Below, in pieces: positions 3,376 to 8,772 of a stretch of DNA of 36,695 nt. Made by a program: the position numbers and the translations under genes. The notes below the pieces were generated by a model. The model saw nothing but the letters and a program-made list of their open reading frames with translations. It ran no database searches and was not told the DNA's origin. How positions within the stretch are numbered: the first letter of the stretch is position 1; each line of letters opens with the position of its first letter. The DNA is from a virus, in IMG/VR virus record IMGVR_UViG_3300009177_000023, positions 1 to 36,695 of that record, one strand, 5' to 3'.

Positions 3376-4290
3376 ATGCTCAAGATCACCAAGGCCGCCG
3401 ATCCCATCGAAGTGAAGCACGTAGTTGTCTGAATCCACGGAGACCCCGGCATCGGGAAAACATCCCTCGGGTTCACCGCCGAGAAACCCCTGTGCCTGGC
3501 GTTCGACAGCGGCGTGTACCGCGCTGGCGCCTTCCGCGGGGACTGCGTCCAGATCGAAAGCTGGCGCGACGTCTCAAACATGACCGCCGCCGACTTCGCC
3601 GGCTACTCGACGGTGGTCGTTGACACCGCGGGACGCGCCCTCGATTGCCTGTCGGCGACGCTGATGGCCGAGGATCCCAAGAACAACCGCGGCGGCGCGC
3701 TGTCGCTGCAAGGGTTCGGCGCCCTGAAGAGCACCTTCTACGGGTGGTTGTCGAACCTGAAGTACATCGGCCTGGACATCGTGCTGATCTGCCACTCGGA
3801 CGAGCAGCGCAAGGGCGACGAGCTGATCACCCGCCTCGACATGCAGGGAGCCTCGAAGAACGAGGTGTACAAGAGCGCCGACATGATGGGCTCACTGTCG
3901 ATGGTGAAGGGCAAGCGAGTGCTCAACTTCAGCCCCACGGACGTGGCGTTCGGCAAGAACCCTGGCCAGCTCCCAGTGCTGACCGTTCCTGACTTCGTTC
4001 CCGGCGCGCCCTCGGGGTTCTTGGCGAAGGCGATCGCCGACACGAAGGAGGCCCTCAATCGCCTGTCGGCCGAAGGCATCGCCCAGGCCGCCCTTCAGAC
4101 GACGTGGGCCGAACGCATCGGCAAGGCGAGCACCAAGGCCGAGTTCGACGCCCTGGCAGCGGCGGGCAAGGCAGAGGGCGCCCCCAAGGCCGTCGGTGCG
4201 CTGCTAACGAAGGCAGCGAAGGCCAAGGGCTTCGCCTGGGACAAGGCAGCCGATGCGTTCGCGCCCGTCGCCGAGAAGAAGGCGGCGTGA
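3376..4290 (+). CDS. AAA_24/Sak4-like RecA-fold ATPase (recombination), interrupted by an in-frame TGA at 3430-3432
   Basis: ATG 3376 has an AAGGAAAG Shine-Dalgarno. Translation gives MLKITKAADPIEVKHVVV*IHGDPGIGKTSLGF (Walker A), then VVVDTAG (Walker B) and DIVLICHSDEQ. The track ORF 3514..4290 lacks Walker A. Confidence 0.7.
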
Positions 4291-5178: not shown

Positions 5179-5312
5179 TCTGTTTTGAAACTCCGCGCCG
5201 GAACGTCCCGCGCGCCGACTGAGAAAGGACGCGCGATCGCGCTGTCGTGGATGCGGCATGCCCTGTGCTGAGGCGGCCGTGCTTGTTACCAACCCCACCC
5301 ACTGGAGGGACC

Positions 5313-6305
5313 GTGTCGTTGGTTTCCGAGGCGGGCATTCGGGCCGCCATCGCCCAACTGGAGGCGATGCTGCCCGAGCGGTCCTGCACCTTCCGTGAGC
5401 TGTGGACCGACTACGTAGCAAGCCTGCCGGCTGAGGCGGGATGGGTTCCAGACGTCGTGTCGCTGATGAAAAAGCCACTGGCGGCCTTCGGTGACGTCAA
5501 GGTTGTCGAGCTGCGACAGTCGAATTGGGCGGCCTACCGCAACGGCCTGGGGCGCGAGCTGTCGCCCACGACGCGCAACCTGGCCCTTCGTCGCACCAAG
5601 GCCGTCGTGCGCTGGGGCGTGGCCGAGGGCAGGGCTTGTGAGACAGCGTTTTTGAAGCTCAAACAGGAGCCGGCCAGGGGCAAGCGGCGGACCGAGATCG
5701 CCGAAGAGGATGACGCCCGTGTCGCGGATGCGTTGCCGCTGGAGGTGAGCGTCCTGTATCGGGTGATGGCGGGCAGCGGGTGCCGGATCGGCGAGGTTCG
5801 AAACCTGCGCTGGGATCAAGTCGACTTCGGGTCGAACACCATCGCCCTGGCCTGGGACGAGAACAAAGGGCGCAAGGCGGCGGTGATAACCTTCACCGCC
5901 GACGCGGCCAACGCCCTGAAGCTGATGCCGCGCGAATCCGTCTACGTGTTCCCGTCGAAGCGCACCGGCCGCCCGCTGGGACATGGGCACTTCTGGTCCC
6001 ATCTCCGCACCGCCTTCGACAAACTGGGCCTGAAGGCGGCGCCGGGGGACGGGAACGTCCACCCACACGACACGCGGCACTCGGTGGCCACGCGGCTCGG
6101 CCGCCGGGGGGTCAGCTTGACCGATATTCAAGGCGTACTCCGCCACGCGAACATCAGTCAGACGGCGCTCTACATCGTGACCAGGGCCGAGGAAATTGCG
6201 GCGGCGGCGCGGCTGCTGGAGGGTCCTCGGCATGGTCCGCACCGCGCCGCGGGGTCGGCGAAGGTGGGACCCGCCGCTCCAAAAGCAAGGGCCGCCCGAA
6301 AGTAA
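5313..6305 (+). CDS. int: Tyrosine recombinase / phage integrase
   Basis: GTG 5313 is preceded by a GGAGGG Shine-Dalgarno. Catalytic signature: GCRIGEVRNLRW (Arg), HPHDTRHSVATRL (H-x-x-R) and LRHANISQTALYI (His...Tyr). Confidence 0.85.
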   Translation: MSLVSEAGIRAAIAQLEAMLPERSCTFRELWTDYVASLPAEAGWVPDVVSLMKKPLAAFGDVKVVELRQSNWAAYRNGLGRELSPTTRNLALRRTKAVVRWGVAEGRACETAFLKLKQEPARGKRRTEIAEEDDARVADALPLEVSVLYRVMAGSGCRIGEVRNLRWDQVDFGSNTIALAWDENKGRKAAVITFTADAANALKLMPRESVYVFPSKRTGRPLGHGHFWSHLRTAFDKLGLKAAPGDGNVHPHDTRHSVATRLGRRGVSLTDIQGVLRHANISQTALYIVTRAEEIAAAARLLEGPRHGPHRAAGSAKVGPAAPKARAARK

Positions 6306-6465: not shown

Positions 6466-6663
6466 ATGGAACCGGACTTCCTGAGAACTTATCAACAGGG
6501 TAATTCGCCCACCCCGAGGCGCCGGGGGCGCGCCAAGGCCTTTCTCACCCAGGCCAGCCCCCGGCTCATTCGAGCGGTCGCCCGCGGCCAAGTAAGCACT
6601 ATCCAGCTCGGGCTGATGTTCGGCCTGACCGTCGCTGACCTCGCTTTCCTGAGGACGCGATGA
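6466..6663 (+). CDS. Small basic HTH-like protein (Xis or regulator candidate)
   Basis: [20 protein letters not shown] is HTH-like. The gene is next to int and has an ATGA overlap with the downstream gene. Confidence 0.4.
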
Positions 6664-7343
6664 CCCCCGCGGAACTGGCGACAGTCATCGAGAGCCACCG
6701 CAAGTGGCGATTCGGTGAAGAGGGCGGATCCCGCGCCGACCTGAGCGGCGCCAACCTGAGCGGCGCCGACCTGAGCGACGCCTACCTGAGCGACGCCAAC
6801 CTGAGCGACGCCAACCTGAGCGGCGCCGACCTGAGCGGCGCCAACCTGAGCGGCGCCGACCTGAGCGACGCCTACCTGAGCGACGCCAACCTGAGCGGCG
6901 CCAACCTGAGCGGCGCCGACCTGAGCGGCGCCGACCTGAGCGGCGCCAACCTGAGCGGCGCCGACCTGAGCGACGCCAACCTGAGCGGCGCCAACCTGAG
7001 CGCGATCCGTGAGGACCTTGTCCAGGTGCTCAACGCCGCGCCGGCCGAGGTTCCGGGGCTGTTGGCGGCCCTGCGCGCTGGCAAGGTCGAAGGGTCCACG
7101 TACGAGGGCGCCTGCGCCTGTCTCGTCGGGACCCTCGCCAACGTCCGCGGGTGCTTTTACCGCGAGCTGGGCGCCTTGCGTCCCGACCCGGACCGCCCCG
7201 CCGAACGGTGGTTTCTCGCCATCACCGAGGGCGCCAAGCCCGAGAACAACCAGGTCGCGAAAATCACCGAGGGTTGGATTGTCGAGTGGCTGGCCAACGG
7301 CCCCGCTGCCGTCCAGGCGCCGACCGCCGAGGTGTCCGCGTGA
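6660..7343 (+). CDS. Pentapeptide-repeat protein (possible DNA mimic) with a Cys-containing C-terminal domain
   Basis: 18 consecutive A(D/N/Y)LS(G/D/A) pentapeptides, followed by ...[24 protein letters not shown]... Confidence 0.85.
6735..7004 (+). repeat. 18 tandem 15-bp units GCC-(G/A/T)AC-CTG-AGC-G(G/A/C)(C/G), near-identical at the nucleotide level
   Basis: Read directly. Only the first base of codon 2 and the last two bases of codon 5 vary. All synonymous positions (GCC, CTG, AGC) are invariant. Confidence 0.9.
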
Positions 7344-8479
7344 TCCGCTGGCTCGGCACCAAGAAGGTCAAGCTCGCGACCATCGTCCTGCCGGGCGGGT
7401 TCGCGAAGCGGAAGAAGGAGCAGCACGTCCGCGACCTGGCGGCGTCCATCGAGCGCGGTGGGGTGATCAGTCTGCCCGTGGTGCAGGACAAGCCCCGCAA
7501 GCTGGTGGCAGGCGGCGACCGACTCGCGGCGCTGATGCTGAACAAGGTCATGTCGCACGAGGTGCGAATCGTCCGCGGCACGGCCCAGGAGCTTGAGGAG
7601 CTGATGCTGGAGGAGAACCTCCTGCGCCGGCGCAGCGACGACTATGCCGCGATGACCAAGCGACTGGTGGAGCTGCGCACGGGGGACATCGAGGCGGCCG
7701 ACCGAGCGGAGGTTGTCGCCGAGGAGGCGGCCGGTCGCGCCATCATTGAGCGCTTCCTGGAGGAAGCCGTCGACGACGGATTACTGGTCGCCGCGACCGC
7801 AAATGACGAGCCCGCCCCGGTGGGCCGCCCCAAGACGGCGAAGGGCAAGGCCCGCGAGCAAATCGCGAAGGAGACGGGCAAGACCCCCGAGGCCATCCGC
7901 CAGGCCGAGAAGCGGGCGGTGGCGAAGGAGCGAAAGGCCGCGGAGCAAGAGCAGAACCCGTTCACCGACGCCGGGGAGCCGCTCGCGCCACCGGTCGAAA
8001 CGTACGGACTGCCCCTATTGACCGCCGAGGACGCCTACCAAGTCGTCATGGCCCAGGCTGCCCTTGAGAAGGTGGAGGGGTTCCTGAACAAGGCCCTGGC
8101 CTCCGTCGCGAACCACGCCGGGGCCGACTCGCTGGCGGCGCGCATCTGCAACGACGTTATGGCCGCGCTGGGCAAGCTCGCCGTCGACGTGCGCGCCGCC
8201 TACCCACGGGCCGTCTGCGCGGCCTGCAAGCTCATCCCGGCGCGCCGGGCGAAGTGCAAGGCCTGCGCGTCGACGGGCTTCGTGGGCGTGACGGAGTGGC
8301 TCAACGCTCCCGACGAGCTGCGCCTGGGCGGTGACCAGGCGAAGGTCTCCGACGGCAAGGGAGGCTTCATCCCCTACGCCCGTGAGGTCGCGAAGGAAGA
8401 GAAGGCGGCCGAGCGGAAGACGGAACGCAAGCTGCGCGTCGAGCTGGACGACGGCACCGTGTTCGAAGGGGGCGCGTAG
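7340..8479 (+). CDS. ParB N-terminal-domain-like protein with a C-terminal CxxC...CxxC cluster
   Basis: GTGA overlap at 7340. [15 protein letters not shown]...[22 protein letters not shown]...[11 protein letters not shown] resembles the ParB/Srx fold. The C-terminus carries [17 protein letters not shown]. Confidence 0.6.
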
Positions 8480-8481
8480 CC

Positions 8482-8772
8482 ATGAAAGACGAGGTGACGA
8501 AGGGCTACGTGTGCACGGGCGTGTTCGCGACGCCCGAGGAGATCGAACGCATCATGACCGAGCGAGCCTTGCCGATGGCCCGCGTTTTCGGGCGTTGGCC
8601 TGAACCCGAGAAGGTCACGCATCGGGCCGCGCTTTCCCACGGGCTACCGGAAATCGTCGGCTTCTACGGCATCGACTTCCGCGACGGCGAGTTCATCCGC
8701 GTCCGCGACGGGGACATGGACAAGGGCGAACCGTCGTCCGAGTGGCCCACGCCTTCCCCGGGAGCCGCGTAG
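8482..8772 (+). CDS. Hypothetical protein (96 aa)
   Basis: The ATG lies 2 nt after the upstream stop; high GC3. Confidence 0.5.
   Translation: MKDEVTKGYVCTGVFATPEEIERIMTERALPMARVFGRWPEPEKVTHRAALSHGLPEIVGFYGIDFRDGEFIRVRDGDMDKGEPSSEWPTPSPGAA

Follow-up and report, generated by a model that had tools for sequence, protein, structure and literature searches.

How do eighteen copies of a 15-bp unit come to be almost identical within a coding sequence, silent sites included, and what role might a phage protein that is built in this way play? These questions are raised by a pentapeptide-repeat gene of the virus record IMGVR_UViG_3300009177_000023. The whole stretch of DNA analysed, hereafter the window, corresponds to this IMG/VR record, a complete viral sequence of 36,695 bp that comes from a metagenomic assembly and has direct terminal repeats and a GC content of 67%. 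Pentapeptide-repeat proteins are abundant, and their function is mostly unknown. The comparisons described below make it highly probable that the repeat array evolves in concert and varies in length, and they place the gene in a large uncharacterised phage and prophage family, in which a variable N-terminal solenoid is joined to a constant orphan helical C-terminal domain (C-domain). The parts of the gene are as follows.

6660-7343, plus strand: pentapeptide-repeat gene, encoding 227 amino acids (aa), with a GC content at third codon positions (GC3) of 0.91, a net charge of -17 and an isoelectric point (pI) of 4.22
6651-6655, plus strand: Shine-Dalgarno-like GAGGA, 4 nt 5' of the ATG at 6660, read from the sequence
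6660-6734, plus strand: N-terminal cap (aa 1-25), modelled by AlphaFold2 as a helix at residues 3-17 followed by the lead-in GEEGGSR to unit 1
6735-7004, plus strand: array of 18 15-bp units of the form GCC-NAC-CTG-AGC-GNN (aa 26-115), in the frame of the open reading frame (ORF) 6660-7343
6735-6824, 6825-6914 and 6915-7004, plus strand: the three 90-nt (6-unit) blocks of the array, with blocks 1 and 2 identical at 89 of 90 positions
7005-7340, plus strand: conserved helical C-domain (aa 116-227)

The top repeat in the whole window, well ahead of any other, is the single array that Tandem Repeats Finder reported at 6733-7002, with 18.0 copies of a 15-nt period, 92% matches, no indels and a score of 435. 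Across the 18 units, 13 of the 15 columns are invariant. Unit position 4 varies among A, G and T, giving Asn, Asp or Tyr at residue 2, position 14 varies among G, A and C, giving Gly, Asp or Ala at residue 5, and position 15 differs in the last unit only. All of these differences are nonsynonymous and synonymous differences number zero, so that the column count and Tandem Repeats Finder together uphold the description in the first-pass annotation of 18 near-identical units with every synonymous position identical. Given the codon usage of the phage itself (Ala GCC 0.43 and GCG 0.41, Ser AGC 0.25, Leu CTG 0.50, Gly GGC 0.55), the probability that all silent columns would be monomorphic is ~7e-25. 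This value, together with the synonymous-codon identity of 0.32 in other pentapeptide genes of the same hosts, led us to reject codon bias as the reason why the silent sites are identical. The same annotation had noted a 64-nt block at 6750-6813 that recurs at 6840-6903; a repeat at this 90-nt offset does exist, and its extent is different, with a mismatch between 6808 (A) and 6898 (G) and an exact repeat of 75 nt (6733-6807 = 6823-6897). Because blocks 1 and 2 differ at one position in 90, the latest event in the array was a 90-nt tandem duplication.

A side effect of this composition concerns the other reading frames. Of the five alternative frames across 6735-7004, four contain no stop codon; each unit supplies a TGA in frame +2, and two stops fall in one frame of the minus strand. 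Since the array is mostly stop-free in other frames, spurious overlapping ORFs arise, such as that at 6872-7141 on the minus strand.

Silent-site uniformity is a property of the family and not of pentapeptide genes in general. Among 55 family arrays of at least four units, synonymous-codon identity within the array is 0.9 or higher in 48 cases, the median being 0.996 and the value for the window array 1.0; loci L052 (0.32) and L053 (0.23) are the ordinary exceptions. The control consisted of 16 other PF00805 arrays drawn from five host genomes that each also hold a family member. Their synonymous-codon identity has a median of 0.32 and a maximum of 0.47, in agreement with the first-pass claim that the DNA of pentapeptide genes is ordinarily degenerate, and four family genes that were recovered by the same search score 0.93-1.0. 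The isolate phage vB_BaM-IFTN6 has 20 units of the form GCC-NNC-CTG-NNC-GRT, likewise uniform at silent sites.

The uniform codons differ from lineage to lineage: each orthologue has a private set of silent sites that is fixed across all of its units. The sets are as follows.

Window: GCC..CTG-AGC-GGC
L002: GCG..CTG-ACG/GCG
L004: ..AGC-GGT/GAT
L005: CTC-GCG
L006: TCG-GGG
L007: CTC-GYG-NRT

The most informative comparison is with L002, a syntenic sister phage that has the same order of integrase, small ORF, pentapeptide gene and ParB-like gene, and flanks that are 70-83% identical in nucleotide sequence. The two genes are 80% identical in the N-terminal cap and 82% in the C-domain at the nucleotide level, and codons for the same residue are identical in 71% of cases. 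The Ala codon is identical in none of the 360 unit pairs formed between the two arrays and in 100% of the pairs within each array, with GCG in every unit of the sister phage and GCC in every unit of the window. The terminal unit ANLSA (AGC-GCG) is common to both arrays (window 6990-7004, L002:3986-4000), and the rest of the L002 array has ACG or GCG at residue 4. On this sequence comparison the edge units appear to escape homogenisation, and the terminal unit may be shared because edge units are homogenised least, as expected under concerted evolution.

Length and order variation was found in relatives of the window phage. In six protein pairs with flanks that are 100% identical, the arrays differ by 5, 10, 20 or 25 residues and in unit order. 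Two contigs of ~43 kb from two samples (L070 and L071) have no mismatches in 4 kb upstream and identical gene flanks of 183 and 469 nt, and their arrays differ by 60 nt in length and in the order of units. A second pair (L072 and L073) is identical over 1,674 nt downstream, with arrays 30 nt apart in length. Four isolate genomes of the Rheinheimera 'Barba' phages have 0-1 mismatch per 2.7 kb of flanks; their pentapeptide genes measure 558, 573 and 618 nt, and in the fourth case the gene is broken by a frameshift inside the array. Comparison of repeat number among relatives thus revealed variation in both the number and the order of units, with silent sites uniform within arrays, and the expansion and contraction in in-frame 15-bp steps proposed for the window array is seen in relatives with identical flanks as differences in multiples of five residues.

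Out-of-frame changes were also observed. A -1/+1 frameshift pair inside the array of L071 (L071:4001-4900) converts seven units to the GPTSP type without introducing a stop, and a frameshift in the array of Barba13A (L105:1501-2119) splits the gene into two annotated coding sequences. Either the sequencing went wrong at runs of G in these places, or the gene is being switched on and off.

These patterns show concerted evolution, in which in-register slippage or unequal recombination within the array continually keeps the silent sites of the units identical. The same process adds, removes and reorders units in 15-bp steps, each corresponding to one face of the helix, and array turnover is far faster than point substitution in the gene flanks. 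Recent amplification or ongoing concerted evolution, which the window array alone had suggested, is now backed by the private codon sets, the pairs with identical flanks and the 90-nt block duplication.

The positions at which units differ follow a distinct pattern. Heterozygosity, taken by codon position as the mean of 46 arrays with at least eight units, is 0.34 at codon position 2.1, 0.30 at 4.1 and 0.32 at 5.2, and falls to 0.16-0.17 at 4.2 and 5.1. The five third positions have values of 0.007-0.064, and no position of the inward Ala and Leu codons exceeds 0.035. Between-unit variation is thus confined to the first and second codon positions of three outward-facing residues, with the inward Ala/Leu core fixed. 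Neutral turnover would leave silent sites the most variable, and here they are the least variable; the surface differences are therefore maintained by selection or a targeted process. A diversity-generating retroelement was excluded, as the complete genome contains no PF00078 reverse transcriptase and no copy of the unit outside the array. Variation restricted to exposed residues, together with silent sites that have been swept clean, constitutes a strong non-neutral signature.

The arrays also differ from the remainder of their genes in composition. In 45 of 48 loci compared (e.g., L068, L015, L004 and L033), GC3 is higher in the array than in the C-domain of its own gene; the median difference is +0.21 (Wilcoxon p = 6e-9, for loci that are not independent). 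At loci with less than 55% GC the median GC3 is 0.80 in the array versus 0.47 in the C-domain, and the degenerate arrays of L052 and L053 have no GC3 excess. The excess could reflect GC-biased gene conversion, selection at the DNA level or recent transfer.

At the protein level, Pfam PF00805 matches the window protein with E = 2.1e-42 (142.7 bits versus a cut-off of 20.2), phrog_7713 covers residues 1-69, and the 18 contiguous pentapeptides compare with the at least eight matching A(D/N)LXX that characterise the Rfr fold of PF00805. An AlphaFold2 model based on a 109-sequence alignment (mean predicted local distance difference test score, pLDDT, 86; predicted template modelling score 0.77) places a beta-helix at residues 26-113, with a short strand every five residues and ~4.5 coils, and a helical domain at residues 114-218. 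The array is accordingly predicted to form a quadrilateral beta-helix that is right-handed and has four units in each coil, the fold that had been suggested for an AlphaFold check, and Foldseek agrees with the prediction. Searched against PDB and BFVD, the full-length model matched only pentapeptide-repeat proteins, and these only in the beta-helix part. The best matches were Np275/276, HetL, Rfr23 and the synthetic consensus solenoid Beta1 (E ~2e-7), with Qnr and MfpA far lower.

The C-domain is the constant part of the family. Its invariant residues, in window numbering, are G145, Y148, G150, C152, G157, T158, E182 and F185, and the near-invariant ones include A153, C154, L155, R179, P180, G191, T193, P194 and W206. 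Its motif is GxCxCLxGT, and the window protein has all elements of the family pattern G..Y.G.C(A)C(L).GT, RP.E..F, G.TP and W. Homologue searches and predicted folds agree with the original description of the C-terminal ~110 aa as a separate non-repeat domain. Residues 116-227 match no model in Pfam, PHROGs, NCBIfam or PADLOC. Against PDB sequences, the best E value was 0.016 with phmmer (to a designed helical repeat) and 0.38 with a 49-sequence profile. P0014, a natural and almost repeat-free family member, was folded alone and gave a view of the helical C-domain with a pLDDT of 83.8; Foldseek of this model against PDB folds found no match (best E 3.9). DUF5758 (PF19062) was detected neither in the window protein (E <= 0.1) nor in 109 family members (E <= 0.01).

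A word-indexed search with the C-domain recovered 142 proteins of 128-320 aa, nearly all of which combine a pentapeptide array with the C-domain, and an exhaustive phmmer search of 1.84 billion representatives recovered 1,009 clusters (defined at 50% identity) at E <= 1e-3, including 725 at E <= 1e-10. At least three pentapeptide units are present in 112 of the 131 new representatives. The number of units per array ranges from 0 to 35; some members have 0-2 units, and the C-domain also occurs without an array (e.g., P0014 and P0060). In a few members another solenoid precedes the same C-domain: a YdcK beta-solenoid (PF18836) in P0090, a GGxWRGG repeat in P0217, and leucine-rich-repeat-like (LRR-like) LSGTGITxLPEG units in P0079 and P0210. 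Because these repeats stand before the same C-domain, the findings suggest that what the family requires is 'a solenoid' and not pentapeptides specifically. The median pI of whole family proteins is 4.93.

When one genome of each species was scanned, 62 loci emerged, and these belong to no fewer than 10 bacterial phyla. Carriers include Gemmatimonadota, Acidobacteriota, Planctomycetota, Verrucomicrobiota, Bacteroidota and Alpha-, Beta- and Gammaproteobacteria, as well as Paenibacillus, Actinomycetota, Cyanobacteria, Saccharibacteria and Nitrospira. In a collection of 50,697 phage records, one cultured phage carries the C-domain, namely Bordetella phage vB_BaM-IFTN6, in gp49.

The genomic neighbourhood of the window gene bears on its likely time of action. 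The neighbouring features are as follows.

3514-4290, plus strand: Sak4-like single-stranded-DNA-annealing ATPase (phrog_124, E = 1.9e-20)
5247-6305, plus strand: tyrosine integrase, upstream of the cluster (PF00589, E = 1.8e-24)
6466-6663, plus strand: 65-aa ORF with a TGA stop that overlaps the pentapeptide ATG (ATGA) and no confirmed helix-turn-helix (HTH) identity
7340-8479, plus strand: ParB-like gene with a GTG start that overlaps the pentapeptide TGA (GTGA) (PHROG ParB-like partition protein, E = 1.9e-6)

The gene order in the window is Sak4-like gene, integrase, pentapeptide gene and then ParB-like, nucleoside deoxyribosyltransferase and HNH genes. The PF00589 and PHROG matches agree with the location originally given, after an integrase and before a ParB-like gene. 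The small HTH gene that had been read upstream was not substantiated, as the ORF at 6466-6663 has no Pfam, PHROG or PADLOC match. From the ATGA overlap at 6660-6663 and the GTGA overlap at 7340-7343, the pentapeptide gene is taken to be translationally coupled to both neighbours, and the Sak4-like gene upstream puts it in the early recombination region, a location that it shares with many relatives. Within 5 kb of the family gene, 31 of 69 loci have a RecT, ERF, YqaJ, PDDEXK/DUF3799, single-stranded-DNA-binding protein (SSB) or serine-recombinase gene, mostly downstream and on the same strand. In L070 the pentapeptide gene is second in an operon divergent from an S24 repressor, and in vB_BaM-IFTN6 the family gene lies between the repressor and genes for Rha, an antirepressor and exonuclease VIII. 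The pentapeptide gene is thus probably an early-region accessory gene.

Two further features of these neighbourhoods were observed. The middle of the ParB-like gene (7340-8479) gives weak KorA and sigma-70 region 4-like HTH matches that are below cut-offs. In L073, a 61-kb contig, an IS605 OrfB or Cas12f-like TnpB gene is found ~4 kb downstream of the family gene (8706-8729 and beyond).

These observations can be combined into one explanation, toward which we lean without great confidence: a concertedly evolving helix joined to a constant orphan C-domain, forming an early host-interaction or counter-defence protein. The constant C-domain would serve as a functional or anchoring module, the helix would be a fast-evolving surface or spacer engaging a host factor, and the gene would act from an early, recombination- and replication-proximal operon as a counter-defence or host-takeover protein. 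The pattern suggests a phage-host conflict protein, since the repeats change much more rapidly than the other parts of the gene and do so at surface residues alone. The combination of an orphan domain, rapid rewriting of the helix and exposed-only variation is what would be expected if the protein and host factors were in direct conflict. The early host-interaction or counter-defence role, taken by itself, is put forward tentatively, as rather short of an even chance; the anti-defence function originally suggested from the position of the gene is plausible.

One experimental precedent comes from Vibrio phage 24, in which the substitutions Y112R and N115D in gp24_60 were present in all phages that escaped Sucellos, an abortive-infection system that gp24_60 is proposed to counter, and deletion of the gene rendered the phage much more sensitive (bioRxiv 10.1101/2024.07.02.601686).

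Several considerations weigh against this explanation. The common ground between the Vibrio protein and the family is, as far as this is testable by sequence, the repeat type only, and the C-domain was found in Bordetella phage vB_BaM-IFTN6 alone of the phage records searched, among which Vibrio phage 24 is possibly not included. The function of the proteins that carry the C-domain is one that we infer, and a role for this domain as 'effector or anchor' is a guess, because it has no recognisable fold or family. Clustering of the flanking ORFs of the 69 loci revealed no obligate partner, the best neighbour cluster being present in eight of 68 loci, and pointed only to a loose association with the recombination and replication module. 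Finally, some of the unit-count differences between near-identical metagenomic contigs could be artefacts of short-read mis-assembly.

The alternative that survives best is that the repeat behaviour is a neutral by-product: all function would reside in the C-domain, the helix would be a tolerant spacer or solubility handle, and instability would be a side-effect of perfect repeats. The nearly unconstrained unit count, the repeat-free members P0014 and P0060, the substitution of other solenoids for the array and the lack of a conserved partner gene would all fit such a protein. It is nonetheless unlikely, for heterozygosity at third positions is lower by a factor of 5 to 40 than at positions 1 and 2 of the codons for exposed residues, several unit types are kept within every array, and in the only phage pentapeptide protein that has been tested, gp24_60 of Vibrio phage 24, escape mapped to residues 112 and 115 (bioRxiv 10.1101/2024.07.02.601686).

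A more specific version of the conflict hypothesis, which we consider doubtful, is that the array is a built-in diversification device, in which the number and order of units form a modular recognition surface that is reshuffled by intra-array recombination. Residue 2 (of N/D/Y type) and residues 4 and 5 of each face would then set recognition. If this is true, the constant C-terminal module would keep up with changing host defence proteins, and GC-biased gene conversion, driven by this recombination, would have left its mark in the GC3 excess of the arrays.

The idea with which the locus was first annotated, that of a Qnr/MfpA-type DNA mimic, fared poorly and now appears improbable. In this model the acidic helix would imitate B-DNA and act as a decoy for gyrase, a type I restriction enzyme, BREX or RecBCD. 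The window protein is modelled with the same fold as Qnr and MfpA (Foldseek 2xtw and 2bm4, E 1e-4 to 1e-3), yet generic pentapeptide proteins, cyanobacterial or synthetic, are structurally nearer to it, and its scores against the NCBIfam models for Qnr (NF033086, 38.9 bits versus a cut-off of 240) and MfpA (NF000349, 42.7 versus 360) are far too low. The window copy is strongly acidic, with an array charge of -13 in addition to its low protein pI, and family proteins as a whole tend to be acidic. This charge is not conserved in the arrays, however: judged by net charge, a DNA-like acidic surface would have to be reconciled with family values of -18 to +8 (median -3) and with several arrays that are neutral or basic. 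Lambda keeps Gam near its recombination genes, and the location of the window gene in an early operon near such genes would suit a decoy of this kind. The architecture would suit it less well. MfpA and Qnr have ~8 coils per monomer in their established structures, compared with 4.5 in the window helix, and loops A and B of Qnr, which interrupt the helix and are needed for gyrase protection (QnrB1 structures), have no counterpart in the 18 uninterrupted units, as there is no insertion in 6735-7004. Moreover, unit counts extend from 35 down to 0-2 in some members, the C-domain exists without any array, and LRR-like and YdcK solenoids replace the pentapeptides.

About equally improbable is a prophage-encoded defence or superinfection-exclusion function, by which the protein would be made by the lysogen and act on incoming phages. 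The vB_BaM-IFTN6 gene is on the same strand as the repressor gene and downstream of it, the window gene adjoins the integrase, and many copies are found in bacterial chromosomes, presumably in prophages, all of which would fit this model. On the other hand, no PADLOC defence model matches the protein, the C-domain or four neighbours. The L070 gene, as number two in an operon that diverges from the S24 repressor, is on the lytic early side, and the genes around family members are for the most part co-oriented with them and belong to lytic early recombination and replication.

That the length variation is not biological, unit number and order having been mis-assembled from a repeat longer than the reads, is very improbable: the record is a metagenomic assembly, the -1/+1 frameshift pair of L071 is possibly a sequencing error, and the repeat of Vibrio phage 24 was hard to assemble and required Sanger sequencing (bioRxiv 10.1101/2024.07.02.601686), but mis-assembly cannot produce private synonymous codon sets, the same design is present in isolate genomes (the Bordetella phage and the Barba isolates), orthologues across phyla hold 0-35 units, and exact repeats inside the arrays extend to 75 nt in the window and to 44-129 nt in relatives, shorter than the reads and close to the maximum k in common use, so that most arrays should be resolvable in assembly. 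A practical consequence is that unit counts of such genes in short-read phage genomes are not trustworthy without long reads or Sanger sequencing.

The significance of a concertedly evolving, conflict-associated protein of this kind would extend well beyond one phage. The family comprises ~1,000 clusters that have been spread by phages across at least 10 bacterial phyla and carry an undescribed conserved domain, and its beta-helix is rewritten on a time scale on which no substitution occurs in 4 kb of flanking DNA. Both this family (Bordetella phage vB_BaM-IFTN6) and a sister design (the Barba phages) are represented by cultured or isolated material. The literature searched yielded nothing specific on phage pentapeptide proteins as DNA mimics or as concertedly evolving proteins, with the exception of the Sucellos preprint (bioRxiv 10.1101/2024.07.02.601686). 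The 2021 pentapeptide-repeat review does not mention phages or discuss the behaviour of the repeats at the DNA level, and neither it nor the Barba phage paper gives an account of DNA-level homogeneity or length variation of phage arrays.

Among known systems, the window protein is structurally most like Np275/Np276 of Nostoc (PDB 2J8K), HetL (3DU1), Rfr23 (2O6W) and Beta1 (4YC5, 4YFO), the best Foldseek matches, with a root-mean-square deviation of 0.7 A over 87 columns between its model and Beta1 4YFO. Generic natural pentapeptide proteins are degenerate at the DNA level (as in the controls, with their median of 0.32) and lack this C-domain, whereas the window array is synonymously uniform, of a length-variable type and joined to the orphan GxCxCLxGT domain. 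Qnr, MfpA, AlbG and McbG have the same fold as that predicted for the window protein, which is acidic overall, but its helix is about half as long and its C-terminus is a domain of ~100 aa and not a dimerisation helix.

Phage proteins provide closer parallels in design. The product of gene 24_60 of Vibrio phage 24 is likewise a phage pentapeptide protein with a hard-to-assemble repeat, and its changes Y112R and N115D involve the kinds of residue (N/D/Y/R) that vary between window units. The Rheinheimera Barba proteins share an N-terminal cap, a DNA-homogeneous array of variable length and a constant C-terminal part, and Barba isolates with identical flanks differ by 1-4 units; their C-terminal domain is different from that of the window protein. 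By analogy, and from general knowledge, the array resembles the repeats of transcription activator-like (TAL) effectors and bacterial contingency loci, in which near-identical repeats have a few variable residues of specificity type and change rapidly in unit number. Unlike those systems, the unit of the window array is 15 bp and corresponds to a single face of a beta-helix, and it is carried by a phage early gene.

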